From contig JAJYCY010000002.1 in assembly GCA_021778035.1 (NCBI GenBank), forward strand, positions 12,580 to 76,579: DNA of 64,000 bases, in the 5' to 3' direction. A program made the position numbers and the translations under genes. The notes beneath the pieces were generated by a model. That model searched no databases. It was not told the DNA's origin and saw nothing but the letters and a program-made list of their open reading frames with translations. The stretch's first letter is position 1. Each line of letters opens with the position of its first letter. Positions 1 to 39,361 of this stretch are shown here, piece by piece. The DNA comes from Pseudomonadota bacterium. GTDB taxonomy: Bacteria > Pseudomonadota > Gammaproteobacteria > Acidiferrobacterales > UBA6901.

Positions 1-236
1 GCTCCCGGCACTGATCACGCTACTGTAACCCTTGCGGGGATTGTCGCGCCGCTCGGCGATGAGGTACTCGCCGCATGCGCGAGCGAGCTGCACGCCCGCC
101 TGCAGGGAGGCATCGGTACCGATCGTGTCTGCCACCTGTCCGTAGCCGGAAAGAAGGGCCACGGCCGCGATCGCGAGCACCACGATCACCATGATCAGCT
201 CGATGAGGGTGAAGCCATGCATGCCGCTTCGGGTCA
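1..236 (-). CDS. MSHA-type minor pilin (MshD-like slot), C-terminus cut by window edge
   Basis: The reverse translation starts MTRSGMHG|FTLIELIMVIVVLAIA, a prepilin class III leader plus hydrophobic helix. The ATG at 236-234 overlaps the upstream gene's stop (ATGA). It is the fourth pilin-like gene after mshE/G. Confidence 0.55.
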
Positions 237-2575: not shown

Positions 2576-3811
2576 TCAGTGTCCCATGGCAGCGCGCGCC
2601 AGATCCCACATGGGCAGAAAGACCCCGAGCGCGAGGACCAGCACGATCACGCCGATGATGGCGATCAGGATCGGCTCGATCGCCGTATTCAGGCTGCGCA
2701 GGTCGTAGTCGACCTCGCGCTCGTAGTAGTCGGCCACCTCGGTGAGCAGTGAGTCGAGCGCTCCCGATTCCTCGCCGACCGCGATCATCTGCACCACCAG
2801 GGGCGGGAACAGGCCGGTAGCCGTGGCACAACGGGTAATGCTTTCGCCACGCTCGACGCCGTCGCGCATCTGCCCGATACGCTCGCCCACAAAGTCGTTA
2901 TCCACTGCGCGGCTGACGACCGACATGCCCTGGACAAGCGGCACGCCGGCCTTGAGGGTGGCTGCCAGGGAACGCGAAAATCGTCCCAGGGTGGCGGAAT
3001 AGAGGATCCGGCCAATCACTGGAGTCCGCAGTTTCATCCTGTCCCAGCGGTAGTGTCCATCCGGCGTGCGCAGATAACCGCGCACTGCAAGCGCCACGCA
3101 AGCCGCCGCGACCAGCAGCACCACCCAGCTGTGCACCATGAAATGCGAGGTCGCGATGAGCAGTCGCGTCGCCCACGGCAGTCGGGCGTGAAAACCGGCA
3201 TAAACCCGCGCAAACGAAGGAATCACGAAGATGTTGATGATGAACAGCGCCACGGTGATGGCGAACACCACGATCGACGGGTAGCGTACAGCCTGCTTGA
3301 TGCGGGCACGCGTATCCTTCTCCCGGTCGAGATAGGCGGCCAGCTGCTGGAACGCCTCGGGAAGATTGCCGGTGGTTTCGCCTACCTGGACCATGCTCAC
3401 GAACAGGCTGGAGAAGATCTGCGGGTGCCGCCGGACCGCGCCGGTGAGATCCATACCCGCATCGAGGCTCTCGCTGATCTTTCCGATCACCTCGGCCAGC
3501 GCCGGATTGCGGGTCGAATCGCGCAGCCCCCGCAGACTCTGCATGATCGGAACGCCGGCCCTGAGCAGGGTATACATCTGCCGGCAGAAGAAGATGAGGT
3601 CGGTGATCGCGACCCGGCCCGCATTGAGGCGTCCGGCCAGACCTTTAAGCCCGCCGAACACGTCGGCGACCGCCGCTGCCGGCCGGATGTCGATCGGCGT
3701 GATACCGTTACTGAACAGCTGGTTGGCAACTGCCTCGTCCGAAGCTGCCTCGATACGGCCATGCACCGCCTCGCCACGGCGGTTGCGTCCGGAGTAATGG
3801 AAATGGGCCAT
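2576..3811 (-). CDS. mshG: Type IV pilus/T2SS inner-membrane platform protein (GspF/PilC family, MshG-like)
   Basis: 411 aa with the duplicated GspF-domain architecture and three hydrophobic segments. It immediately follows the ATPase gene. Confidence 0.85.
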   Translation of the reverse strand: MAHFHYSGRNRRGEAVHGRIEAASDEAVANQLFSNGITPIDIRPAAAVADVFGGLKGLAGRLNAGRVAITDLIFFCRQMYTLLRAGVPIMQSLRGLRDSTRNPALAEVIGKISESLDAGMDLTGAVRRHPQIFSSLFVSMVQVGETTGNLPEAFQQLAAYLDREKDTRARIKQAVRYPSIVVFAITVALFIINIFVIPSFARVYAGFHARLPWATRLLIATSHFMVHSWVVLLVAAACVALAVRGYLRTPDGHYRWDRMKLRTPVIGRILYSATLGRFSRSLAATLKAGVPLVQGMSVVSRAVDNDFVGERIGQMRDGVERGESITRCATATGLFPPLVVQMIAVGEESGALDSLLTEVADYYEREVDYDLRSLNTAIEPILIAIIGVIVLVLALGVFLPMWDLARAAMGH

Positions 3812-3825
3812 GATGGCTGCGCCCC

Positions 3826-5541
3826 TTACTCCTCCAGGCCGAAGGTCGCACGCAACACCTGGTCCATGGTGGTCAACCCGCGTGCGGCAAGATCGATCGC
3901 GCTGCGCCTGAGGCTGAGGAATCCGGGCTGCGCCCGGGCGGCCACGGCGAATGCCAGTGGATCGGCGCGGTGCAACGCCGCGAGCAGGCTGTCATCCATC
4001 TCCAGCAGCTCGTAAATGCCGATGCGCCCGCGATAACCGGAATGATTGCAGTACGTGCAGCCGCGGCCACGGCGGAACTCCAGCCCGTCGGCCGACCGGC
4101 CGAGTTCCTGCTCAACCAGCACACGCAGCCCAGGTTCCAGGGCGGACGGCTCGGAACAGCTCTCGCAGATGCGCCGCAGCAGGCGTTGCGCCAGGATCCC
4201 GCGCAGACTGGCGGCAATCAGGAACGGTGCCGCGCCCATGTCGAGCAGGCGCGCGGGCGTGGACACGGCATCGTTGGTGTGCACCGTCGACAGGACCAGG
4301 TGGCCGGTCATGGCAGCGCGTAGTCCGATTTCGGCGGTTTCCTGGTCGCGCATCTCGCCGACCAGCACGATATCCGGGTCCTGACGCAGCACCGAGCGCA
4401 GCACGCGGGCGAAGGTCAGGTCGATGCGGCTGTTCACCTGTACCTGGTTGATGCCCGGAAGCCGGTACTCGATCGGATCCTCGACTGTGATGACCTTCAG
4501 GGCCGGCTTGTTCAGTTCGCGCAGCGCGCCATACAGAGTAGTGGTTTTGCCGCTACCGGTGGGTCCGGTGACGAGCACCATGCCATGCGGGCTGTGGATC
4601 ATCCTGCGGAAACGGGCAAGCTGCGCCTCGGGCATGCCGAGCTGGCTGAGATCGAGCACGCCCGTAGTCTGGTTGAGCAGCCTCATCACCGCCGATTCGC
4701 CGTACTGCACCGGCAGGGTCGACAGACGCACATCCACGCTCTTGTCACGCACCCGCACGTTGAACCGTCCATCCTGGGGCAGACGCTTTTCCGAGATGTC
4801 GAGGCCGGCCATGAGTTTCAGGCGTGACAGCAGTGCGCTGGCGATGCGGCGTTCGGCAGTGGTCTGCACACGCAGCACACCGTCGAGGCGGAAGCGGATC
4901 CGCAGATCGTGTTCATCGGGTTCGATATGGATGTCCGAGGCATTGACCTGGACTGCATCCTCGAACATGGTCTGGAGCAGCCGGACCACCGGCGCATCGG
5001 TCAGGCTCGCGGATCCGCCAAGCTGGCCCAGATCCACGTCGTAAGCTGACATCTCCTGGTCCAGTTCCTGGGCAAGGCCGCTGATCTCCTCGGTATGGCG
5101 ATACATGAGGTCGATGGCTTTCAGCAGACTCGATTCGCGCACCACCGCCAGCTGCAGCGGCCGGCGCAGCACCCGCGCAAGCTCGTCGTACGCGAAAATA
5201 TCGGTCGGATCGGCCATGCCGACCAGCAGGCTTTCACGGCCTTCCTCGAGCGCCAGAGCCCGGAAACGGCGTGCATGGGTCTCCGGAATGAGGCGCACAA
5301 TCTCGGGATTGAGGTGGTAGCGCATGAGGTCGATGTATGGAATGTTGAGCTGCCGCCCGAGAAAATCCAGCAGCTGGTCTTCGGTCAGATACCCGTTTTC
5401 GATCAGCACGCGTCCAAGCTTGCGCCCGCTCTTTTTCTGCTCCGCGAGAGCGGTGTCGAGCTGTTCGCGCGAGATGATCCGGTGCTCGATGAGCAGATCC
5501 CCGATCCGGATCTTCTTCGGCCTGGCGGTAACCGCTGACAT
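3826..5541 (-). CDS. mshE: Type IV pilus assembly ATPase MshE (GspE family) with N-terminal c-di-GMP-binding MshEN domain
   Basis: Walker A GPTGSGKTTT. A C-terminal tetracysteine (CESC...CTYCNHSG). The N-terminus has two tandem 24-residue motifs, RIGDLLIEHRIISREQLDTALAEQ and KLGRVLIENGYLTEDQLLDFLGRQ. I chose the start at the internal ATG (MSAVTARPKK) rather than the ORF-track start at 5619. Confidence 0.9.
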   Translation of the reverse strand: MSAVTARPKKIRIGDLLIEHRIISREQLDTALAEQKKSGRKLGRVLIENGYLTEDQLLDFLGRQLNIPYIDLMRYHLNPEIVRLIPETHARRFRALALEEGRESLLVGMADPTDIFAYDELARVLRRPLQLAVVRESSLLKAIDLMYRHTEEISGLAQELDQEMSAYDVDLGQLGGSASLTDAPVVRLLQTMFEDAVQVNASDIHIEPDEHDLRIRFRLDGVLRVQTTAERRIASALLSRLKLMAGLDISEKRLPQDGRFNVRVRDKSVDVRLSTLPVQYGESAVMRLLNQTTGVLDLSQLGMPEAQLARFRRMIHSPHGMVLVTGPTGSGKTTTLYGALRELNKPALKVITVEDPIEYRLPGINQVQVNSRIDLTFARVLRSVLRQDPDIVLVGEMRDQETAEIGLRAAMTGHLVLSTVHTNDAVSTPARLLDMGAAPFLIAASLRGILAQRLLRRICESCSEPSALEPGLRVLVEQELGRSADGLEFRRGRGCTYCNHSGYRGRIGIYELLEMDDSLLAALHRADPLAFAVAARAQPGFLSLRRSAIDLAARGLTTMDQVLRATFGLEE

Positions 5542-8477: not shown

Positions 8478-8578
8478 TGAAGATTCCCGATGGATGCTGC
8501 TGAAGTCCTGTGGATCCGATAACGTCCCGCAGAACGGTTCACATCACGCGCCACGCGTACCGGCAGCAGGCAGCGACA

Positions 8579-8911
8579 TCACTCCCCGTCAAACCTGCTG
8601 CAGAATGCGGCACGCATCGCACCGATGAGATTAATGATTTCCGGTTCGGCGATCCGGTAGTATACCTTGTTGGCGTCCTTGCGCGACACCAGGATGCCTT
8701 TGTCCCTCAGGATCGAGAGATGTTGGGAAATGTTGCTCTGTGACGTACCCACGTGCTCGACGATTTCCTGCACGCTTACCTCGTTCAGGGCGCCCAGCAT
8801 GCACAGGATCTTCAGGCGCAACGGGTGGGCCATCGCTTTGAGCGAATTCGAGGCGTTGTAGATATCTTCCTCATTGGTGATCAGTCCCGCATGTTCGGCA
8901 GTAACGCTCAT
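8579..8911 (-). CDS. ArsR/SmtB-family transcriptional regulator, two-Cys SqrR/BigR/YgaV-like
   Basis: Winged HTH: HPLRLKILCML...VSVQEIVEHVGTSQSNISQHLSILRDKG. Cys37 and Cys104 are spaced 67 residues apart, close to the persulfide-sensing pair of SqrR/BigR. Start at ATG 8911, preceded by GAGGTGAGGTGAGG. Confidence 0.8.
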   Translation of the reverse strand: MSVTAEHAGLITNEEDIYNASNSLKAMAHPLRLKILCMLGALNEVSVQEIVEHVGTSQSNISQHLSILRDKGILVSRKDANKVYYRIAEPEIINLIGAMRAAFCSRFDGE

Positions 8912-26311: not shown

Positions 26312-27031
26312 ATGGAACCGATTCACACCCACATCTCCCGCCAGTTCAACGCCGAACTCGAGGATATCCGTACCCGCGTTCTACAGATGGGGGGTATGGT
26401 CGAACGGCAGATCGAACGCGCCATCGAATCGCTGGTGAAAGGTGATGTGAACCTCGGCGAGGCGGTGATCATGGACGACACCAAGGTGAACGCGATGGAG
26501 GTGTCAATCGACGAGGAGTGCAACCAGATCATCGCCAAGCGCCAGCCGGCGGCAAGCGACCTGCGGCTGGTGGTGGCGGTGATCAAGACCATCACTGATC
26601 TCGAGCGTATCGGTGACGAGGCGGAGAAGATAGCCCGCATGGCCGTCCGGCTGGCGCAGGAAGAGCGGCCGAAGAACAACTACCTGGAGATCCAGGCGCT
26701 GGGAAACCGGGTGCAGCAGATGCTGCGGGATGCACTCAATGCCTTCGCGCGCCTGGATGCCACTGCCGCGGTCCATTCCGCCCAGGAAGACATCAAGGTG
26801 GACCAGGACTACGACGGCGTCATGCGCCAGATGATCACCTTCATGATGGAGGACCCGCGCACCATATCACGCATGCTGAACGTGATCTGGGCTGCGCGCG
26901 CGCTCGAGCGGATCGGCGACCATGCCAGCAACATCTGCGAGTACGTCATCTACCTGGTCAAGGGCAAGGACGTACGGCACATCAGTCTCGAGCAGATCGA
27001 GAAGGAAGTGCTCGGCGGGAAGAGCAGCTAG
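26312..27031 (+). CDS. phoU: Phosphate signalling complex protein PhoU
   Basis: 239 aa with duplicated PhoU repeats carrying E/DxxxD motifs (LERIGDEAEKIA and LERIGDHASNIC). Confidence 0.95.
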   Translation: MEPIHTHISRQFNAELEDIRTRVLQMGGMVERQIERAIESLVKGDVNLGEAVIMDDTKVNAMEVSIDEECNQIIAKRQPAASDLRLVVAVIKTITDLERIGDEAEKIARMAVRLAQEERPKNNYLEIQALGNRVQQMLRDALNAFARLDATAAVHSAQEDIKVDQDYDGVMRQMITFMMEDPRTISRMLNVIWAARALERIGDHASNICEYVIYLVKGKDVRHISLEQIEKEVLGGKSS

Positions 27032-27650: not shown

Positions 27651-29792
27651 ATGAGCATCGCAGAATCCGCAGTGGAGCCCGCCCAGCAATCCTCCCTCCT
27701 GTTCAACCGGGAACTCAGCCTGCTCGCATTCAATGGCCGGGTCCTCGACCAGTCCCTCGACCAGAGCACCCCGCTGCTCGAACGGCTGCACTTTCTGTGC
27801 ATCTCCAGCACCAACCTGGACGAGTTTTTCGAGATACGCAAGGCGCGCCTGCAGGAACAGGTCGCCTCGGGATCGGTGGATGCCGGGCCCGACAACCGCA
27901 ATCCGCAGGAACTGCTGCGGCAGATCAGCGACTATGCCCACCGGCTGGTGAACGAGCAGTACCGCATCCTGAACGATGTGCTCATTCCCGCACTGGAGCG
28001 TGACAACATACGCTTCCTGCGGCGCACCGAATGGGGTCCGGAAGCGACCGAATGGGTCAAGCACCACTTCGAAAACGAGCTGCTGCCCATGCTCACCCCC
28101 ATGGGCCTCGATCCGGCGCATCCGTTTCCGCGCATCCTGAACAAAAGCCTGAACTTTCTCATTACCCTCCAGGGCAACGACGCTTTCGGCCGGCACGGCG
28201 GCATAGCGATCGTGCAGGCGCCGCGCGCGCTCCCGCGAGTCATCAGGCTGCCCAAGGAGTGTGCCAGCGGACCCCATGCGTTTGTCTTCCTCACATCCAT
28301 CATCCATGCCCATGTGAATGACCTGTTTCCGGGGATGGACGTCACGGGCTGCTACCAGTTCCGGGTCACGCGCAACTCGGAGCTTTTCGTCGACGAGGAA
28401 GAGGTGCAGGACCTGCTGCGCGCCCTCGAAGGTGAACTTGCCTCACGCCGCTACGGCGACTCCGTAAGGCTCGAGGTCGCCGACAACTGCCCGTCCGACA
28501 TGACCGGCTATCTGCTGCGCCAGTTCGGGCTCGAGCCACAGGACCTCTATCAGGTAAACGGCCCGGTAAACCTCAACCGGCTCATGGCGGTCGCCGAAAT
28601 GGTGGACCGCCCGGACCTGAAGTACCCCTCGTTCACGCCCCGCATTCCGCGCCGCCTGACCCGCGCCAAGAACATGTTCGATGCCATACGCCAGGACGAC
28701 ATCCTGCTTCACCACCCCTTTGACTCATTTGCTCCGGTAATTGACTTCGTGCGCCAGGCGGCAGCGGACCCGCGTGTCCTGGCCATCAGACAGACGCTCT
28801 ATCGCACCGGACCCGAGTCTGCGCTGGTCGATGCGCTGGTGACGGCGGCACGCGGTGGCAAGGAAGTCACCGTGGTCATAGAACTGCGCGCACGCTTCGA
28901 TGAAGAGGCAAATATCGGCCTTGCCACCGTTCTCCAGGAAGCCGGGGCGCACGTCGTCTACGGCGTCGTCGGCTACAAGACCCACGCCAAGATGATCCTG
29001 GTCGTCCGGCGCGAGCGCGGCCGCCTGAGACACTATGTCCATCTCGGAACCGGCAACTACCATGACCGCACGGCGCGGCTGTACACCGACTTCGGTCTGC
29101 TGACCTGCGCGGACGCCGTCGGCGACGATGTGGACAAGCTGTTCCGCCAGCTGACCGGCCTCGGGCGCGTACCGAAACTCTCCACGCTGCTGCAGTCGCC
29201 CTTCGTGCTGCACCTGGAATTGCTGCACCGCATCGGCCGGGAAGCCGAGCTTGCCCGGAAAGGCCTTCCGGCACGGATTGTGGCCAAGCTCAACGCACTC
29301 ACCGAACCAAGGATCATACAGGCGCTTTACGACGCATCATCGGCCGGCGTGCGCATCGACCTAATCGTGCGTGGAATCTGCTGCCTGCGCCCGGGCCTGC
29401 CAGGGGTGTCGGAGCGGATCCGGGTATACTCGGTGGTCGGGCGCTTCCTTGAGCATACGCGCGTGTACTGGTTTCTGAACGCCGGCCGGGGACCGGTCGG
29501 CAACGCCGCAGCGGCCGATACCGAAATCGCACCCGCCAGCGGTGAGGTCTTGTGCGCCAGCGCCGACTGGATGGACCGCAATTTTTTCCGGCGCGTGGAA
29601 GTGGCGTTCCCGGTCGAGAACCAGAAACTGCATGAGCGCGTGGTGCGCGAAGCACTCAACTATTATCTGCGCGACAATACTCACACCTGGGAGCTGGGCG
29701 CCGATGGCAGCTATCGCCGCCTGAGCCCGGGGGACAGCGAGCCCTGGTCAGCCCAGACCCAGCTGATCCAGGAACTGTGCGAATCACGCTAG
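27651..29792 (+). CDS. ppk: Polyphosphate kinase 1
   Basis: 713 aa. Contains FNRELSLLAFNGRVLDQ, LERLHFLCISSTNLDEFFEIR, KTHAKMILVVRRE (the autophosphorylated His region) and tandem PLD-like C domains. Confidence 0.95.
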   Translation: MSIAESAVEPAQQSSLLFNRELSLLAFNGRVLDQSLDQSTPLLERLHFLCISSTNLDEFFEIRKARLQEQVASGSVDAGPDNRNPQELLRQISDYAHRLVNEQYRILNDVLIPALERDNIRFLRRTEWGPEATEWVKHHFENELLPMLTPMGLDPAHPFPRILNKSLNFLITLQGNDAFGRHGGIAIVQAPRALPRVIRLPKECASGPHAFVFLTSIIHAHVNDLFPGMDVTGCYQFRVTRNSELFVDEEEVQDLLRALEGELASRRYGDSVRLEVADNCPSDMTGYLLRQFGLEPQDLYQVNGPVNLNRLMAVAEMVDRPDLKYPSFTPRIPRRLTRAKNMFDAIRQDDILLHHPFDSFAPVIDFVRQAAADPRVLAIRQTLYRTGPESALVDALVTAARGGKEVTVVIELRARFDEEANIGLATVLQEAGAHVVYGVVGYKTHAKMILVVRRERGRLRHYVHLGTGNYHDRTARLYTDFGLLTCADAVGDDVDKLFRQLTGLGRVPKLSTLLQSPFVLHLELLHRIGREAELARKGLPARIVAKLNALTEPRIIQALYDASSAGVRIDLIVRGICCLRPGLPGVSERIRVYSVVGRFLEHTRVYWFLNAGRGPVGNAAAADTEIAPASGEVLCASADWMDRNFFRRVEVAFPVENQKLHERVVREALNYYLRDNTHTWELGADGSYRRLSPGDSEPWSAQTQLIQELCESR

Positions 29793-29805: not shown

Positions 29806-31356
29806 CTAGCCGAACTCCAGATTGATCCCGGCAGCCCTGAGCCACGCAGATTCCTGCTCCAGGTCAGCAGCGGTCAGCGGATGCTGCCGTAGCCAGCCAC
29901 GCGCGAACTTTACCTGCAGGGAACGCTTTTCGGCGCGCAGCTTGAGGCCCTTCGGAACGTTCCCGGTGCGCGGGCGGTGCAGCAGGACCGCAAGCCGCAG
30001 CAGGACGCAGAGATAACTGGCCGCGGAGCGGTTCTGCGCGGGAAGCGCGTCGAACACGTCCACCGGAAATTTCCTGCGATGTCCACGGATGATGGCGGCC
30101 AGCTGCTGCTGCGTCTGCCAGGAAAATCCGGGGAGATCCGATTTTTCCGCCAGATAGGCGCCGTGCTTGTGATACTGGCTGTGTGCAACGGCCAGGCCGA
30201 TTTCGTGCAGCCGCGCCGCCCAGCTGAGCAGCCGCTCGTCGTCGCCGGACAGACCCCAGGTGTGCGCGACCTGGGCGAACTCCTCGCCGGCGGTACGTCC
30301 AACCCGCGCGGCCTGGTCAGCGTCGACATGGAACCGGCGGGCAAGCATTGCGACCGTGCGTTCGCGCACATCCTCATGCCGCAGCCTCCCGGCGAGCTCA
30401 TAGAGAAGCCCTTCCCGCAGCGCACCCTCAGCAACCTGCATGCGCCGTATGCCAAGCGACTCATGCACCGCAGTCAGTATTGCGACACCTCCGGCAAACA
30501 CGGGTGCCCGGTCGGCACCAAGCCCGGGAAGCCTGAGACGGTCCACGTGCCGTGCAGCGATGAGCGCTGCACGCAGGCGGCGCAGCGCGGCCGGCGTGAT
30601 CGTGCCGTCCGTCCAGCCATGGGCCCGAAGCACCGAGCGCACCGAGCGGATGGTGCCGGATGTCCCGATCGCGGTTTCCCAGCCCCTGCGGAACTGCGAC
30701 TGTACCGGATTCAGTTCCAGGCGCGCGGCGGTTTCCGCGCGGCTCATGGTCCGTTCGGTTATCACACCGTCACCGAGATACGCGTCGGTCATGCTGACGC
30801 AGCCCATGTACAGGCTTTCCATGGTGATGGCGTCGAAGCCCTGGCCGATGATGATTTCCGTGCTCCCGCCGCCAACGTCGACGACCAGCCTGGGATTTCC
30901 ATCGTCCGGCCAGCTGTGCGCCATGCCCTGGTAGATCAGGCGCGCTTCCTCGCGCCCGGCGATGATTTCGATCGGATGCCCGAGCGCACGCTCCGCGGCA
31001 GCAAGAAAAACCCCGGATCGATGCATGCGCCGGAGGGTGTTGGTTCCGACAGCACGCACGCTGCCATGCCCGAATCCGCGCAGGCGCTGGCCAAAGCGGG
31101 CAAGACAGGCAAGCGCCCGGGCGCGGGCCGCGGAACCGAGACGGCCGTGCGCATCAAGCCCGCCGCCCAACCGGACCATTTCCTGGAGCCGGTCGAGCAC
31201 ATGCAGGCGTCCGTCCATCATCTGCGCGACAATCATGTGAAAACTGTTCGACCCGAGATCCAGGGCCGCGACAACTCCTGACGTCCCGGCGCCGGCGCGC
31301 GCTTCCCGTGACGTCTTGCCGCGCCGGGTTCCCGGAGAACGGTTTCTCCGCTTCAT
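29806..31356 (-). CDS. ppx: Exopolyphosphatase (Ppx/GppA family)
   Basis: AALDLGSNSFHMIV, VGTNTLR and DVGGGSTE are ASKHA-fold motifs. A C-terminal HD-like domain is present. Its ATG directly abuts the upstream stop (TGAATG). Confidence 0.9.
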   Translation of the reverse strand: MKRRNRSPGTRRGKTSREARAGAGTSGVVAALDLGSNSFHMIVAQMMDGRLHVLDRLQEMVRLGGGLDAHGRLGSAARARALACLARFGQRLRGFGHGSVRAVGTNTLRRMHRSGVFLAAAERALGHPIEIIAGREEARLIYQGMAHSWPDDGNPRLVVDVGGGSTEIIIGQGFDAITMESLYMGCVSMTDAYLGDGVITERTMSRAETAARLELNPVQSQFRRGWETAIGTSGTIRSVRSVLRAHGWTDGTITPAALRRLRAALIAARHVDRLRLPGLGADRAPVFAGGVAILTAVHESLGIRRMQVAEGALREGLLYELAGRLRHEDVRERTVAMLARRFHVDADQAARVGRTAGEEFAQVAHTWGLSGDDERLLSWAARLHEIGLAVAHSQYHKHGAYLAEKSDLPGFSWQTQQQLAAIIRGHRRKFPVDVFDALPAQNRSAASYLCVLLRLAVLLHRPRTGNVPKGLKLRAEKRSLQVKFARGWLRQHPLTAADLEQESAWLRAAGINLEFG

Positions 31357-32334
31357 TCAGTGTTTTTCCATGCGGATTGGCGTGAACCCGGCCGTGAGCC
31401 GGCGCACGAACTCCCGCTGCGACCGCAGGAGCGTACGCGCAGACTGATCAAGATACCGGCGCCTGATTTTTTCGTGAAGCATGGCGGCTTCCTCCCGGTT
31501 CCTTAATGCCAGCCAGCGCAGACCGGGCATCAGATCGCCGTCGGGTTCCTTGCGGGCACCGGATTTCCGCAGGCGGGCCAAGGTCCGCGCCATCACCTGG
31601 CGGTCGTGCAGCTTCCCGAGGCTGTCCTGCAGTTCCCTGAGCGGCCCGATCACGGCGTCTGCCTCCTTCCCGCGCACCAGCGGCTCGATCAGGTAGCGCA
31701 GCCGCTTGGCGGTGATGCGTGCCGCATGGGCACCGGCCATGTCCCGAACGGAGCCGATGCGGCCAAGCTGGCCTGCAAGGACCGCGAGGTGCCGGCGCAC
31801 ATGCGGCGCGGCCGCGCCCGCAAATCCGGCCCGGGCTGCGGACCCTTTTCCGCAGGAAGCCAGCGCCTTCTGCCCAAGCCGGTGCCGTATCCTGCGGTCC
31901 AGCTGCCTGAACTCCGGAAGCGCCGCCTGGCGGACCCGACGCACCGCTGTCCTGCGCCGGGCCGCAAGCTGCGCGCGCACCCAGCGCCTGCCCGGCCGTT
32001 GCGCCACTCCCGCGCCGGGCCGCAGGGAATCAATCCATTCGAGCTGGACCTCGGCATCGCGCACATCGCCGGTTGCGTGCGAGACGGCACGCAGACGCCT
32101 GCGCAGTTTGTGGGGCACGCCGGCGGCCACAAACGGTGCATAGGCCCGCAGCGCCACACGCAGCCGCCGCAGCGACACCCGGAGTTCATGCATGGCGGCA
32201 CCGTCCCGGCCATGCTCGATCCGCCGGCACGCGATGCCTGCCGCGTCCAGATTCGCCTGCACCAACCGGCGCACGGCCTTGTCCGCAGCAGTTTCAGGAG
32301 CGATGCGCGCCACGACCACACCTCCCGATCGCAC
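31357..32334 (-). CDS. CHAD domain-containing protein
   Basis: 325 aa, helical. It has repeated conserved-His/Arg motifs (MHELRVSLRRLRVALRAY; AHAARITAKRLRYLIE; HDRQV) characteristic of CHAD. Confidence 0.8.
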   Translation of the reverse strand: MRSGGVVVARIAPETAADKAVRRLVQANLDAAGIACRRIEHGRDGAAMHELRVSLRRLRVALRAYAPFVAAGVPHKLRRRLRAVSHATGDVRDAEVQLEWIDSLRPGAGVAQRPGRRWVRAQLAARRRTAVRRVRQAALPEFRQLDRRIRHRLGQKALASCGKGSAARAGFAGAAAPHVRRHLAVLAGQLGRIGSVRDMAGAHAARITAKRLRYLIEPLVRGKEADAVIGPLRELQDSLGKLHDRQVMARTLARLRKSGARKEPDGDLMPGLRWLALRNREEAAMLHEKIRRRYLDQSARTLLRSQREFVRRLTAGFTPIRMEKH

Positions 32335-32812
32335 CCAGTGCCGCCGACGTCATCAGCCAGCCCAGCACACCGGTTCCGGGAGCCGGATTTCCGGCGAACT
32401 CGATCAGGCACGCAGCGCCCTTGCCGAACGGCGTGAACGATTCCAGACGCTTCGCGAGCAGCCAGCCGGCCAGGACACCCAGGTCCGGCTCGTGGCCCAC
32501 GGCACCCACGGCCGCATCGGGTGGCTGCTGGCGCAGCCAGGCCAGAAAATTCCTGGGGCTGTTTCCGGGGGCAAGTGCCGGCAGAACCGCCACATCCCCG
32601 ATCCCATACTGGCCAGCCAGAATCCGCGCGGTCTCTTCTGCCCGCAGCAGCGGGCTGGCCGTGATCAGGGTGATCCCGGGCAGCAGGATTTCCAGTCCTT
32701 TTGCCGCAGCACGCATGCGGCGGCGCCCGTGGGACGTGAGGCGCCGGTCGCGATCACGCTGGCCTGATGCACGCTCTTGCGCACGTGCGTGTCGAACCAG
32801 AACAAGCTTCAT
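32294..32812 (-). CDS. sixA: Phosphohistidine phosphatase SixA-type (histidine phosphatase superfamily)
   Basis: From the internal ATG: MKLVLVRHARA (RHG-type motif), SPLLRAEETA and VGHEPDLG. About 172 aa. Its 3' end overlaps the CHAD gene start. Confidence 0.7.
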   Translation of the reverse strand: MKLVLVRHARAQERASGQRDRDRRLTSHGRRRMRAAAKGLEILLPGITLITASPLLRAEETARILAGQYGIGDVAVLPALAPGNSPRNFLAWLRQQPPDAAVGAVGHEPDLGVLAGWLLAKRLESFTPFGKGAACLIEFAGNPAPGTGVLGWLMTSAALGAIGRCGRGAHRS

Positions 32813-32910
32813 CGTCGTGAGTATATCGGAAGCAGATCCGCGCCGGCGAGGACACAGGGCGCGGGTCTCGTCCGGGATTTCCGCGGCCACCGGCCCGCGG
32901 TGGCGGACTA

Positions 32911-34017
<1,107 letters not shown>

Positions 34018-34042
34018 TCATTAATTACCGCATCCCGCTTGT

Positions 34043-34972
34043 CTATTTCTTCTTCTTTGCAGCCTTCTTCGGCGCCGCCTTCTTCACCGCTTTCTTGGGC
34101 GCCGCCTTTTTCTTTGCAGCCTTCTTCGGCGCCGCCTTCTTCACCGCTTTCTTGGGCGCCGCCTTTTTCTTTGCAGCCTTCTTCGGCGCCGCCTTCTTCT
34201 TCACCGCTTTCTTGGGCGCCGCCTTCCCGGCTGCTTCCTTGGCAACCGGTCTGGCCGCGACAGCCCTGGCGGTCGCGGGCTTCGCCCCGCTGCCCGTCCC
34301 GACGCCTACTGCCGCCAGCGGGCGCATCTGCGCTTCGATGATGTCGCTGATCGACTTGAAGATGTCGCTGATGCTGCCGACTCCGCGGGCTGTGCGCAGC
34401 TTGCCCTGCGCCTTGTAATAGGAGACGAGTGGCGCCGTCTGTTCCTCATAGACCTTCAGGCGGTTGCGGACCGTGTTTTCATTGTCATCCGAACGGTGCT
34501 GCAGCATTCCGCCGCACTTGTCGCACTTCCCGGGGACCTTGGGGGGGGTGTAATAGACGTTGTAGATTGCCCCGCAGGTACCACAGGTGCGCCGGCCGGT
34601 CAGGCGCTTCATCAGGACTTCGATGTCCACATCCACCAGCAGCGCAAGCTGCAGCGGCTGACCGACACGGGCCAGCATGGCATCCAGCGACTGCGCCTGG
34701 GGAATATTCCGCGGAAACCCGTCCAGGATGAATCCGCCCTTGGCATCGGGTGTCGCCAGCCGCTCCTGGATCATGCCCAGAACCACGTCATCGGCCACCA
34801 GCTGCCCCGCATCCATAGCCGCTTTGGCCTTTCTTCCGAGCTCAGTGCCTGCTGAAACCGCGGCCCGAAGAAGATCACCGGTGGAAAACTGGGGAATTTT
34901 ATACTTTTCAACCAGTAACTTAGACTGCGTTCCCTTGCCGGATCCCGGCGCTCCCAGTAGCACTATTCGCAT
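34043..34972 (-). CDS. adk: Adenylate kinase with Zn-type LID and a ~90-aa C-terminal Lys/Ala/Pro-rich repeat extension
   Basis: MRIVLLGAPGSGKGTQ P-loop. LID has CGTCG...CDKCGG (4 Cys). A canonical Adk would end near ...SDIIEAQ (about aa 218). It is followed by ...AAPKKAVKKKAAPKKAAKKKAAPKKAVKKAAPKKAAKKKAAPKKAVKKAAPKKAAKKKK. Confidence 0.9.
   Translation of the reverse strand: MRIVLLGAPGSGKGTQSKLLVEKYKIPQFSTGDLLRAAVSAGTELGRKAKAAMDAGQLVADDVVLGMIQERLATPDAKGGFILDGFPRNIPQAQSLDAMLARVGQPLQLALLVDVDIEVLMKRLTGRRTCGTCGAIYNVYYTPPKVPGKCDKCGGMLQHRSDDNENTVRNRLKVYEEQTAPLVSYYKAQGKLRTARGVGSISDIFKSISDIIEAQMRPLAAVGVGTGSGAKPATARAVAARPVAKEAAGKAAPKKAVKKKAAPKKAAKKKAAPKKAVKKAAPKKAAKKKAAPKKAVKKAAPKKAAKKKK
34055..34226. 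repeat. 57-bp tandem repeat x3 (coding, adk tail)
   Basis: Copies 34055-34111 and 34112-34168 are identical. The third copy (from 34169) carries a 3-bp ttc insertion and then diverges. Each unit encodes 19 aa of the KKAAPKKA-type tail. Confidence 0.9.
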
Positions 34973-35260: not shown

Positions 35261-35629
35261 ATGAACCAGATACCGGATTTCAGCGAAACCGAGCTGTGGG
35301 TGATCCGCTCGGCCGTGAACCAGCGCTACGGCAGACACGTCGAGCTGCAGATGGCCGACACCGAGCTGAGGCTTGAGCCCTCCGTGACAGAACTCATTAC
35401 CTGTCCGGCCGTATTCTGGGCCGAACGTGGCGCGAACTTCGTGGTCTGCAAGATCGGCGAAGGCCGCTACCGCAGCCAGTTCTTTTACAGCATCCGCGAG
35501 CAGTATGGCACGGGTCGCGAGACCTACGATGACCTCGCCGAATGCGTAACGATTCTCCTCCAGGTCCAGTCAGACCATGAGCGCGACAAGGGGCTCCAGG
35601 CCGGGGACCACCCCGCCGATTCCGGCTAG
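35261..35629 (+). CDS. Conserved hypothetical protein (122 aa)
   Basis: Intact ORF with ATG start and GC3-rich codons. No motif recognised. Confidence 0.5.
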   Translation: MNQIPDFSETELWVIRSAVNQRYGRHVELQMADTELRLEPSVTELITCPAVFWAERGANFVVCKIGEGRYRSQFFYSIREQYGTGRETYDDLAECVTILLQVQSDHERDKGLQAGDHPADSG

Positions 35630-35666: not shown

Positions 35667-36938
35667 ATGGCAAAAAATCCGCCAAAAAATGCCTTTTACG
35701 CCCAGTCCGGCGGAGTCACGGCTGTCATCAATGCATCGGCATGCGGCGTCATAGAGACCGCACGCAAGCACCGCGGCAAGATCGGAAAGGTCTATGCGGG
35801 CCGCAACGGCATCATCGGCGCGCTGACCGAAGATCTCATCGACACCAGCAGGGAATCGGTCACTGCCATACGCGCGCTGCGCCACACCCCGTCCGGCGCG
35901 TTCGGATCCTGCCGTTACAAGCTCAAAAGCCTCGAACAGAACCGGCGCGAGTACGAGCGCCTGATCGAGGTGTTCAAGACCCACAACATCGGCTACTTTT
36001 TCTACAACGGCGGGGGGGATTCAGCCGACACCTGCCTGAAGATCTCGCAGCTATCCGAAACCATGGCTTACCCGATAACCGCGGTGCATGTCCCCAAAAC
36101 CGTCGACAATGACCTGCCGATCACGGATAACTGTCCCGGTTTCGGTTCGGTCGCCAAGTACATCGCGGTGTCGACTCGCGAGGCGAGTTTTGACGTTGCG
36201 TCCATGGCAAAGACCTCGACCAAGGTCTTCATCCTGGAGGTCATGGGCCGGCATGCAGGCTGGATCGCAGCCGCTGGCGGGCTGGCGTCCACCCGCGACA
36301 CGGAAATCCCGATCGTAATCCTGTTTCCGGAAATCACATTTGACCGGGACCGGTTCCTGGCCAAGGTGGATGCCAACGTCAGGAAATTCGGTTATTGCAC
36401 TGTGGTGGTATCGGAGGGCGTCAAGAGCGCGGATGGCAAGTTTCTCGCCGACCAGGGCCTGCGCGACGCGTTTGGTCATGCCCAGCTGGGCGGGGTTGCC
36501 CCGGTCGTGGCGTCGATCATAAAAGACGGGATTGGACTCAAGTACCACTGGGGGGTAGCGGACTACCTGCAGAGGGCAGCCCGGCATATTGCCTCGAAAA
36601 GCGACGTGGAACAGGCTTATGCCGTGGGGAAGGCTGCCGTGGAACTGGCGATTCGTGGCAACAATTCCGTGATGCCGACCATCGTGCGCAAATCAAGCAG
36701 GCCCTACAAGTGGTCGGTGGGGGTTGCGCCGCTCAGCAAGGTGGCAAACGTGGAAAAAATGATGCCGGCCGATTTCATCACAAAGGACGGTTTCGGCATC
36801 ACGGCCAAGTGCCGGACCTACCTCGAACCCCTTATCAAGGGCGAAGATTACCCCCCGTACCGCGACGGCATGCCGCAGTATGTGCGCCTGAAAAACGTGC
36901 CGGTGAAAAAAAGGCTCAAGGGGCAATTCAAGGTCTGA
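35667..36938 (+). CDS. pfp: 6-phosphofructokinase, probably pyrophosphate-dependent (Pfp)
   Basis: The ATG at 35667 follows GGGAG. Contains YAQSGGVTAVINAS, NGGGDSADT, PKTVDNDLPITDNCPGFGS and MGRHAGW, which are PFK family A motifs. About 423 aa, linked to an H+-PPase gene as in some methanotrophs. PPi specificity is inferred, not shown. Confidence 0.8.
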   Translation: MAKNPPKNAFYAQSGGVTAVINASACGVIETARKHRGKIGKVYAGRNGIIGALTEDLIDTSRESVTAIRALRHTPSGAFGSCRYKLKSLEQNRREYERLIEVFKTHNIGYFFYNGGGDSADTCLKISQLSETMAYPITAVHVPKTVDNDLPITDNCPGFGSVAKYIAVSTREASFDVASMAKTSTKVFILEVMGRHAGWIAAAGGLASTRDTEIPIVILFPEITFDRDRFLAKVDANVRKFGYCTVVVSEGVKSADGKFLADQGLRDAFGHAQLGGVAPVVASIIKDGIGLKYHWGVADYLQRAARHIASKSDVEQAYAVGKAAVELAIRGNNSVMPTIVRKSSRPYKWSVGVAPLSKVANVEKMMPADFITKDGFGITAKCRTYLEPLIKGEDYPPYRDGMPQYVRLKNVPVKKRLKGQFKV

Positions 36939-37342: not shown

Positions 37343-39361
37343 ATGTCTGACAGTTTAGTCTTCGCGTTTGTTTGCGCGGCGGCGGCCCTCGTGTACGGGG
37401 TCATTTCCATCTCTTGGATCCTGAAGAAGTCGGCAGGCGACGAGCGCATGCGCGAGATCGCGGCGGCGATCCAGCAGGGCGCCTCGGCCTACCTGAAGCG
37501 CCAGTACAGCACCATTGCGGTAGTCGGCGTTATCCTTTTTGCGGTCATCTTTTTCTTCCTGAACCGGATGACTGCCTATGGCTTCGCCATCGGCGCAGTA
37601 TGTTCCGGCCTGGCAGGAATCCTCGGCATGAACATCTCGGTGCGGGCGAACGTGCGCACCGCCGAGGCTGCCAAAGACGGTCTCAACGCGGCACTGAAAC
37701 TTGCTTTCCGGGGCGGCGCCACCACCGGCATGCTGGTAGTCGGTCTGGGACTGCTTGGCGTCTCGGGCTACTACGCGGTACTGAGCCATCTTACCCCGGC
37801 CGGCCAGAGCGTCGACCTTTCGCCGCTGGTCGGTGTGGCGTTTGGCTCGTCGCTCATCTCCATCTTCGCCCGTCTTGGTGGCGGCATCTTCACCAAGGGC
37901 GCGGATGTCGGCGCTGACCTGGTCGGAAAGGTCGAGGCTGGCATACCGGAGGACGACCCGCGCAACCCGGCGGTCATTGCGGACAATGTGGGCGACAACG
38001 TCGGCGACTGCGCCGGTATGGCTGCGGACCTTTTCGAGACCTACGCGGTGACGATCGTTGCCAGCATGCTGCTCGGCAGTCTCGTGATCAGGGGATTCAA
38101 CAACGCCGTGCTCTTCCCGCTCGTCCTGGGCGGCGTATCCATCCTCGCATCGATCGTCGGCACGTTCTTCGTCAAGGCGCGTGACGGTGGAAAGATCATG
38201 AACGCCCTGTACCGGGGCCTGATCGTGGCAGGAATCCTGTCAGCCGTGGCATTCTATTTTGTCACCCGGAAGCTCATGGCCGGCAACGGCATATACGACT
38301 GGCACGCACTCTACTACTGCGCGCTGATCGGCCTGGTCGTGACTGCGGCGCTGGTGGTGATCACTGAATACTACACAGCCACCGAGTACAAGCCGGTACG
38401 CTACATCGCCGAGGCTTCCACCACGGGACACGGCACGAACGTCATCGCCGGACTTGCGGTGTCGATGAAGGCAACGGCCGCCCCGGTGCTGGTGATCTGC
38501 GCCGGAATCTGGGGTGCGTATGCGTTTGCCCATCTCTATGGCATCGCCATCGCGGCCACCTCCATGCTGTCAATGGCCGGAATCATCGTGGCCCTCGACG
38601 CCTACGGCCCCATCACCGACAATGCCGGGGGTATCGCGGAAATGGCCAATCTGCCGTCGCAGATCCGCGACATCACCGATCCTCTGGACGCAGTCGGCAA
38701 CACCACCAAAGCGGTGACCAAGGGATACGCGATCGGCTCGGCCGGACTGGCCGCGCTGGTGCTGTTTGCCGACTTCACCCATGACCTGGCCGCCCACGGC
38801 AAGGTGGTGCAGTTCGATCTTTCCAATCATCTCGTCATCATAGGGCTGTTCATCGGCGGCCTGGTTCCCTACCTGTTCGGCGCCATGGCGATGGAAGCGG
38901 TCGGCCGTGCCGCCGGCTCCGTCGTGGTCGAGGTACGCCGGCAGTTCAAGGAAATCCCGGGAATCATGGAAGGCAAGGCCAAGCCGGACTATTCACGGGC
39001 CGTTGACATGCTTACCCGCGCCGCGATCAAGGAAATGATCATTCCGTCCCTGCTTCCGATTTTTGTGCCGCTCGTCGTCGGCCTGACGCTTGGACCACAG
39101 GCCTTGGGTGGCGTGCTGGTCGGATCGATTGTCACCGGACTTTTCGTCGCGATCTCGATGACCACCGGCGGCGGAGCCTGGGATAACGCCAAGAAGTACA
39201 TCGAATCCGGCCAGTTCGGAGGCAAGGGTTCGGACGCCCACAAGGCAGCAGTCACCGGCGACACCGTAGGCGACCCCTACAAGGACACCGCCGGACCTGC
39301 GGTGAACCCGCTCATCAAGATCATCAACATCGTTGCGCTGCTCATGGTGGTACTGCTGTAA
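37343..39361 (+). CDS. hppA: Membrane-bound H+-translocating pyrophosphatase, K+-independent type
   Basis: 672 aa, multi-TM. Signature [38 protein letters not shown] has Lys at the position that is Ala in K+-dependent enzymes. Confidence 0.95.

Follow-up and report, generated by a model that had tools for sequence, protein, structure and literature searches.

The stretch of DNA analysed here in full (hereafter the window), 64,000 nucleotides of contig JAJYCY010000002.1 from a Pseudomonadota bacterium, carries on its minus strand an adenylate kinase gene, adk, whose product runs past the canonical end of the enzyme into a long tail dominated by lysine, alanine and proline. Adenylate kinase (Adk) is a textbook and intensively studied small enzyme, normally treated as freely diffusing. 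The tail, its recurrence among homologues and its putative role as a polyanion tether are the subject of what follows. The gene and its parts, with the evidence on which each is placed (ORF, open reading frame; AF2, AlphaFold2), are these:

34043..34972, minus strand: adk coding sequence, 309 residues plus stop (ORF list; Pfam ADK, ADK_lid and AAA_17; NCBIfam NF001380)
34331..34972, minus strand: catalytic core, residues 1-214, comprising a P-loop (GAPGSGKGT) and a long lid whose zinc knuckle has the cysteines C130, C133, C150 and C153 (profile coverage, invariant columns, AF2, PDB)
34313..34336, minus strand: conserved junction E213-A220 (EAQMRPLA), by which the last helix is carried past the canonical Adk end (alignment, AF2)
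34226..34312, minus strand: near-neutral spacer of A, G, V, P and T, residues 221-249, net charge +3 (sequence, charge count, AF2)
34046..34225, minus strand: polycationic block, residues 250-309, six AAPKKA sub-units ending in KKKK (composition, charge, sub-unit coordinates, predicted disorder)
34049..34225, no strand assigned: 57-bp tandem array of 3.1 copies (Tandem Repeats Finder, exact-match test, pattern search against shuffles)

A complete adenylate kinase and its extension

To judge from its profile matches, the window protein is the organism's ordinary, complete adenylate kinase, and catalysis is predicted. Pfam ADK (PF00406) matches residues 5-190 with 186.8 bits (cut-off 26.8) and ADK_lid (PF05191) residues 127-162 with 58.8 bits (cut-off 26.6), TIGR01351 scores 248 against a cut-off of 168, and the NCBIfam equivalog NF001380, a profile of 216 positions, reaches 296 bits against a cut-off of 251 while aligning to residues 1-214 only, so that some 95 residues are extra. 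The P-loop (residues 7-15) and the four lid cysteines are invariant in an alignment of 30 diverse homologues. In the PDB, it is zinc-lid Adks of 217-226 residues that match best (E 1e-67 to 1e-74); all alignments end by query residue 214, and among the PDB matches there is no Adk chain longer than 245 residues and none with such a C-terminal extension. Canonical Adks (1AKE of Escherichia coli, 214 residues, and the zinc-lid 1ZIN of Bacillus, 217 residues) thus share fold and motifs with residues 1-214, but their solved chains lack the K/A/P extension. In an AF2 model made from a 30-sequence alignment, the core has predicted local distance difference test (pLDDT) values of 70-94, with block means of 71-94 across residues 1-221. 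A protein identical to the window Adk (P0001) was found in public assemblies. One candidate family for the tailed enzymes, NCBIfam NF010381 (PRK13808, 335 positions), was ruled out because they score about half of its 426-bit cut-off (197.7 bits for the window Adk and 215-216 bits for those of loci L007, L024 and L068), their best-scoring stretch covering profile positions 1-125/127 only; NF010381 represents long Adk forms already curated as adenylate kinase, of which the window protein is not a member.

The extension begins with the junction, in which Q215, R217, P218 and L219 are invariant among 30 diverse tailed homologues. The helix that it prolongs spans residues 201-225 in the AF2 model, with a pLDDT of about 71 at residues 211-220. 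An A/P/G-rich spacer also follows in relatives, though it cannot be aligned. The block beyond it (...GKAAPKKAV KKKAAPKKAA KKKAAPKKAV KKAAPKKAA KKKAAPKKAV KKAAPKKAA KKKK) consists of 49% K, 34% A and 10% P, contains no D, E or R and has a net charge of +30. Residues 222-309 have pLDDT values below 50 and no predicted secondary structure. By its dominance of K, A and P, absence of acidic residues, short tandem repeats and disorder (the last as predicted by AF2), the tail can be assigned to the compositional class of histone-H1-like K/A/P tails, which is not a homology family. It does not contain the polyphosphate (polyP)-binding motif PASK, defined as at least 75% D/E/S/K in 20 residues, i.e. 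at least 15/20 (PMC12345225), since no 20-residue window holds more than 10.

The DNA encoding the block is a tandem array, for which Tandem Repeats Finder reports (34049-34225) a period of 57 bp, 96% matches, a score of 320 and nested periodicities of 30 and 15 bp, its sub-units being of 27/30 bp. A 90-bp exact match at offset 57 makes 34053-34199 (147 bp) perfectly 57-periodic, and the third unit is longer by 3 bp, i.e. one extra AAG (Lys) codon. The 57-mer was found twice without gaps (0 and 1 mismatch) against none expected in 100 shuffles. A sequence-only reading of this DNA, made earlier, had reported about 90 extra residues of H1- or AlgP-like K/A/P composition, encoded in part by two identical 57-bp units. 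The extension is indeed real and in frame, at about 95 residues, and its composition was likewise borne out by the lack of acidic residues and the predicted disorder; the two units are identical in one register (34053-34109 equals 34110-34166) but differ by one nucleotide in the register that starts at 34049. Two plus-strand ORFs over the repeat (34039-34341 and 34095-34418) were rejected as genes, being mirror translations (poly-F/A/G, S/P/L) of an array whose units differ between relatives yet always stay in frame with adk.

Recurrence, length variation and lysine preference of the tails

On the evidence of homologous sequences, the cationic tail is a widespread and recurrent feature of Adk, and not the peculiarity of the window gene for which it had first been taken. 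A search of 5.8 billion proteins, of which the 120 best matches were analysed, returned core identities of 72-100%, lengths of 264-392 residues and K/A/P-rich ends in 120/120 cases, the tails past the conserved RPL measuring 45-173 residues (median 91) with net charges of +12 to +91. A scan with the core only (residues 1-225, so that the tail could introduce no bias), run on one genome of each GTDB species, gave 80 loci, in which ORFs were extended to the stop. At core identities of at least 70%, all 24 loci are tailed (tails of 78-136 residues, net +21 to +62); they come from Acidiferrobacterales, Sulfuricaulis, Sulfurifustaceae, 'Muproteobacteria' and unclassified metagenome-assembled genomes (MAGs). 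Ordinary Adks of 213-220 residues were found in Ectothiorhodospira, Thiohalospira, Oceanococcus, Woeseiaceae, Lentisalinibacter and others, and R/K/A/S-rich tails of 58-191 residues in many Steroidobacteraceae-type genomes as well as in L024, L028 and L036. Tails are present in 37 of the 79 nearest species analysed, and this comparison of Adk lengths and tails in related genomes, proposed by the sequence-only reading, came out in favour of a genuine extension. Fitch parsimony on a neighbour-joining tree of the 79 cores counts at least five gains or losses, a number that is indicative only since the tree is built from a single gene. Finally, in an exhaustive phmmer search with the core alone against 1.84 billion representatives of 50%-identity clusters, the best 150 examined include 51 single-domain Adks with C-terminal extensions of 53-334 residues, 49 of which have net charges of +19 to +132. 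Chromatiales and Candidatus Thiodiazotropha MAGs are among the named ones. The source names returned for homologues are of MAGs only, and the public copies for which they were retrieved are labelled only 'adenylate kinase' or 'nucleoside monophosphate kinase'.

Tail architectures on Adk are diverse. One set of long Adks (P0158, P0160-P0162, P0173, P0190, P0201, P0206, P0208, P0219 and P0239) shares a motif ...I/V-x-G-G-x-V... just past the core, followed by a K/T/S/R-rich tail of 100-290 residues, except that the extension of P0208 is short and non-cationic. In other long Adks (e.g. P0151 and P0179), an acidic D/E block lies ahead of the cationic block. The top-scoring representatives (P0128-P0135 and others) are of 600-2700 residues with 2-14 Adk-like stretches and are probably eukaryotic multi-Adk proteins, unrelated to the tailed enzyme.

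Within lineages, tail length varies by whole repeat units. In five sibling contigs of the window, the number of 57-bp units is one, two or three and the protein accordingly 271, 290 or 309 residues long; the flanking DNA is 99.6-99.9% identical to that of the window (3-9 differences over 2244 positions and 3-4 over 1500). A lineage with a 45-bp unit has a series of 265, 280, 295 and 310 residues in steps of one unit, and a lineage with a 39-bp unit has lengths of 281 and 307 residues inside one 90% cluster. Together with the homogenised units of the array, these near-identically flanked length variants agree with the proposal of the sequence-only reading that the repeat expanded recently and varies in length. 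The siblings are MEGAHIT k141 short-read assemblies, and a perfect array of four or more 57-bp units, which yields identical 141-mers, could collapse in them, so that three copies are a lower bound; the variation between 271, 290 and 309 residues may be real, artefactual or both.

In locus L016, a 300-nt direct repeat (3700-3999 and 8551-8850, 100% identical) consists of the tail-coding DNA of adk plus 86 nt downstream, copied onto the end of an unrelated 428-residue ORF with a signal peptide and no Pfam match. A chimeric join made during co-assembly is the probable cause of this duplication, which, if genuine, would represent a transfer of the tail module.

The tail has been kept throughout the clade of 24 loci although their cores have diverged to 70-80% identity. 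Its repeats are a different matter, since the unit differs from lineage to lineage (57 bp in the window, 45 in L001 and L002, 63 in L003, 33/66 in L004, 39 in L005 and 54 in L006), with a perfection of 94-100% in L001-L003, L005 and L006 and of 81% in L004, and in more distant relatives the repeats are degenerate or missing. Each of the 58 tandem-repeat periods reported is a multiple of 3. Lysine outnumbers arginine by 816 to 18 in the tails of the clade, as against 370 to 349 in the cores of the same proteins and 615 to 2485 in the long ORFs of the window (63% G+C), a strong and specific preference for lysine in the tails. Selection would thus act on charge and length rather than on sequence, while the repeats would grow and shrink by slippage or unequal recombination. 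The possibility that cationic tails are a proteome-wide trait of the lineage found no support, no lysine-dense stretch (8 K or more in 30 residues) other than the Adk tail being present in any of the six frames of the window, and nearly all such stretches in 1.23 Mb of related loci being Adk tails.

Genes around adk

The neighbouring features, identified by Pfam and NCBIfam profiles unless noted otherwise (PPi, pyrophosphate), are as follows:

26312-27031, plus strand: PhoU
27651-29792, plus strand: Ppk1
29806-31356, minus strand: Ppx
31357-32334, minus strand: CHAD protein
32294-32890, minus strand: SixA-like histidine phosphatase (TIGR00249, 59.9 bits, below the cut-off of 74.5)
32911-33933, minus strand: HemB
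33991..34009, minus strand: GC-rich hairpin GGCCCGG-cgagt-CCGGGCC followed by TTTCTGTC, a weak terminator-like candidate before hemB (read from the sequence)
35261-35629, plus strand: orf122, 122 residues, divergent from adk (ORF list; called as a gene in sibling contigs)
35667-36938, plus strand: PPi-dependent phosphofructokinase (PPi-PFK), divergent from adk (NF010675, 655 bits)
37343-39361, plus strand: H+-translocating pyrophosphatase (H+-PPase), divergent from adk

The genes ppx, CHAD, sixA, hemB and adk all lie on the minus strand, the CHAD and SixA-like ORFs as listed overlapping by 41 nt. Ppk1, Ppx and the CHAD protein are encoded 1.7-6.4 kb from adk, both in the window and in loci L001-L006, and the sequence-only reading had placed these genes and those of the PPi enzymes correctly. 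Among the 80 loci, however, only these six closest relatives have ppk, ppx and CHAD within 10 kb of adk: none of the three lies within 10 kb in the tailed loci L007, L017 and L018, within the 8.5-kb downstream flank of L015, or near adk at any tailed locus of the Steroidobacteraceae type. Gene linkage therefore lends no general support to a role specific for polyP. The divergent arrangement of adk, PPi-PFK and H+-PPase is found at most of the 80 gammaproteobacterial loci, tailed or tail-less, which suggests a conserved module of adenylate and pyrophosphate energy metabolism but cannot account for the tail, since tail-less Adks have it as well. The coupling of Adk to polyP that the sequence-only reading had put forward is physically plausible, on the precedents of AlgP and of YihI and Rnr discussed below, but the proximity on which it drew is confined to L001-L006 and the pair of PPi enzymes is independent of the tail.

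Throughout the Acidiferrobacterales-type clade, hemB adjoins adk. The position of orf122, which has no Pfam or NCBIfam match, is conserved in 18 of the 24 loci of this type. The hairpin lies 34 nt past the adk stop and was not called by a scan for consensus terminators, as it does not satisfy the T-run rule, so that its status as a terminator is that of a candidate only.

What the tail may bind

A full-text literature search for Adks extended at the C-terminus by a lysine-rich or disordered tail gave nothing relevant. Polycationic appendages of this type are known from other proteins, but a core metabolic enzyme is an unexpected carrier, and on Adk the tail is widespread and apparently undescribed. 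The C-terminal domain of the eukaryotic linker histone H1, and bacterial Hc1/Hc2 and the lysine-rich tails of HU (HupB), resemble the Adk tail in having about 40-50% K together with A and P, no acidic residues and disorder (a comparison that draws in part on PMC9239181); these are dedicated chromatin proteins that bind polyanions independently of sequence, whereas Adk is an enzyme of adenylate metabolism. AlgP (AlgR3) and PhaF of Pseudomonas likewise have a long C-terminal K/A/P domain, predicted to be disordered and encoded by short tandem repeats, the number of which differs among strains and species, but the Adk unit KKAAPKKA(A/V) has twice their lysine density and no KPAA, the Adk tail is shorter (60-95 residues as against 154-195) and without detectable homology, and the folded partner is a metabolic enzyme instead of a helical or phasin domain. 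The KPAA-repeat, H1-like C-terminal domain of AlgP binds DNA, and AlgP is found on polyP granules, the even spacing of which requires this domain (PMC9239181), while the disordered KPAA domain of PhaF, homologous to that of AlgP, binds specific RNAs through its lysines and has a repeat number that differs widely from species to species (PMC12818456). Housekeeping enzymes with a low-complexity tail of the polylysine type, as in Adk, include topoisomerase I of Streptomyces and Mycobacterium and the K/A/P-tailed valyl-tRNA synthetase (ValRS) of NF011492, the C-terminal 146 positions of which align to Adk residues 164-308 (E = 3.4e-8). Non-specific DNA binders, topoisomerase I among them, typically have low-complexity regions rich in lysine (PMC6821194), and in topoisomerase I the tail stabilises the enzyme-DNA complex (cited in PMC6821194). 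In topoisomerase I and ValRS, however, the polyanion (DNA or tRNA) is the substrate, whereas the substrates of Adk are small nucleotides, so that a tether would serve localisation and not substrate binding.

Other carriers of the motif were sought in two ways. A protein search with the tail only gave a single weak match and is uninformative in this respect, since HMMER corrects for biased composition. A degenerate DNA pattern for KKAAPKKAAKK was therefore run against metagenome contigs, and 88 in-frame ORFs of at least 90 residues were scanned with Pfam. Among the matches listed, the motif is mostly an appendage of DNA- or RNA-binding proteins: SWIB (10 ORFs), ribosomal L21 (9), HC2 (histone H1-like, 6), HU (4), topoisomerase I (2-3), phasin (2), and L22, RecA, sigma-70, Adk, aldehyde dehydrogenase, glyoxalase and a MetE-like protein (one each).

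The reading that we favour, with moderate confidence, is that the tail is a histone-H1-like, sequence-independent polyanion tether on a housekeeping Adk. The extension would act as a flexible C-terminal 'leash and hook' added to a complete enzyme, consisting of the helix extension with its QxRPL motif, a spacer of about 29 residues and a polycation of about 60. The polycationic block would bind cellular polyanions through multivalent electrostatics regardless of their sequence, and thereby concentrate Adk on or in the nucleoid and RNA-rich and polyP-rich regions, where ATP use may be heavy and ADP and AMP may need re-equilibration, while the spacer would leave the moving lid and NMP (nucleoside monophosphate) domains free. 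That whole lineages and dozens of independent clusters are tailed would point to selection for placing adenylate equilibration on a polyanionic scaffold, be it nucleoid, RNA or polyP. Several points weigh against this reading. We infer its functional step entirely from composition and analogy, and homology of the tail to AlgP, PhaF or H1 cannot be claimed from the sequences compared: KPAA, the tetrapeptide signature of AlgP and PhaF, occurs 0 times in the tail (AAPKK occurs six times instead) and Pfam HC2 (PF07382) has no match to Adk at E values up to 0.1, so that the tail is not a homologue of AlgP, PhaF or HC2. Many related bacteria do well with an Adk of 213-220 residues, and the tail must be dispensable in principle since they thrive without it. 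The census of motif carriers draws on an arbitrary sample of 120 contigs that is not matched by lineage and in which many ORFs have no Pfam domain, and the 51 extended cluster representatives speak for breadth and not for frequency, as representatives may favour long members.

Part of the same evidence can be read as pointing to a tether specific for polyP, by which Adk would be docked on granules beside Ppk1, Ppx and the CHAD protein, either as a local polyP:AMP phosphotransferase and ATP-regenerating unit or in order to remove the ADP that inhibits polyP synthesis. We regard this as possible but unlikely. It would fit the presence of the three genes near adk in the window and in L001-L006, and several of the tailed lineages (Acidiferrobacterales, Chromatiales, Thiodiazotropha) are sulfur oxidisers. 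A PPK-ADK-polyP complex was reportedly described by Ishige and Noguchi in 2000. Overproduction of Ppk1 in E. coli gives rise to a polyP:AMP phosphotransferase activity through Adk (review PMC3163519), and AlgP, with its K/P/A tail, is a validated protein of polyP granules (PMC9239181). Binding of polyP by YihI and Rnr of E. coli resides in lysine-rich disordered regions and is lost, with the polyP shift, upon K-to-R changes (PMC12345225), which fits the 816:18 bias. Lys- and Arg-rich peptides bind polyP similarly, Arg being better for poly(A) (review PMC13415246). However, the ppk/ppx/CHAD linkage is not conserved along with the tail, no CHAD or other known granule-targeting domain was found inside Adk with Pfam and NCBIfam profiles, the motif sits mostly on DNA- and RNA-binding domains among the matches listed, and a polylysine block of +30 cannot, unaided, tell polyP from far more abundant nucleic acids. 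A bolder version, which we put forward as speculative and consider quite improbable, is that the tail partitions Adk, together with Ppk1, into polyP- and nucleoid-associated condensates, so that polyP, AMP, ADP and ATP would interconvert in one electrostatic compartment. If true, this would amount to a polyP:AMP phosphotransferase metabolon without a dedicated PAP or PPK2, in which partitioning would be set by tail length and tuned through repeat slippage. Binding would scale with phosphate number (polyP > ATP > ADP > AMP), so that the location or condensation of Adk would respond to energy charge, and the independent tails in sulfur-oxidising and other Gammaproteobacteria would reflect a general and overlooked spatial organisation of adenylate metabolism.

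Little credence is given to the idea that the tail tunes stability, solubility or turnover instead of location, as an entropic bristle or solubility tag, an autoinhibitory or ATP-sensing appendage, or a starvation degron for polyP-Lon. Polylysine has a higher affinity for ATP than for ADP or AMP, Lon together with polyP reportedly breaks down basic ribosomal proteins of E. coli (Kuroda et al. 2001), and a tail that is predicted to be fully disordered and under selection for charge and length only would suit such roles. Basic disordered regions bind ATP and polyphosphates and can be driven by them into phase separation, an effect that rises with phosphate number (review PMC13415246). Nevertheless, Adk is among the most soluble and stable of small enzymes and most relatives are tail-less, and net charges of +30 to +130 are far beyond what a solubility tag needs. 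Attachment of the polybasic block to anionic phospholipids, which would hold Adk beside the H+-PPase and ATP synthase, is very improbable. Polybasic stretches are able to associate with acidic lipids (a phosphoinositide example is found in PMC4941749) and adk is conserved beside the genes for H+-PPase and PPi-PFK, but the synteny is identical with tail-less Adks, the tail contains no hydrophobic or amphipathic anchor, and the other carriers of the motif are nucleic-acid proteins and not membrane proteins. The chance that the tail is a neutral by-product or an artefact (read-through of a slippage-prone repeat, mis-assembly or a mis-called stop) is close to negligible. The closest assemblies are all short-read MEGAHIT k141 contigs, which makes copy number uncertain, and the perfect 300-nt duplication of L016 looks like mis-assembly. 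Yet more than 100 homologues, obtained in different projects and with different assemblers, have a cationic tail in frame, and their differing units are all multiples of 3. The QxRPL junction does not vary, the extreme preference for K over R opposes genome composition, and the tail is kept in 24/24 species of the clade with cores down to 70-80% identity. Exact copy number aside, the existence of the tail is effectively safe from this objection, and the frameshift or assembly artefact that the sequence-only reading had named as its possible undoing finds no footing.

If confirmed, a polyanion tether on Adk would provide a simple natural example of an enzyme localised by a generic electrostatic tag, and its repeat a case in which rapid evolution tunes a housekeeping protein. 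It would also be relevant to the way in which clients are recruited to polyP granules and the nucleoid.

Cationic extensions were also seen on the products of genes in the vicinity of tailed adk genes. In a Steroidobacteraceae MAG (L072:14108-14593, plus strand), a small ABM-like protein (weak Pfam match, E = 0.002) with a K/A/P/S-rich C-terminal tail is encoded about 3 kb downstream of adk. In L007 (7949-9319, minus strand) and L024 (305-2215, minus strand), it is the PPi-PFK beside adk that has a cationic extension, at its N-terminus (MPKARAKTKTRAKTKTKARTARPKAKPKN... and MAARKKTVRKKTARKP..., respectively), whereas elsewhere PFK starts only about 8 residues ahead of the conserved AFYAQSGG. 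The Adk tails of these two loci (+62 in L007 and +73 in L024) are the most highly charged among complete ORFs, a hint, from two cases only, that Adk and PPi-PFK may be recruited to one scaffold.

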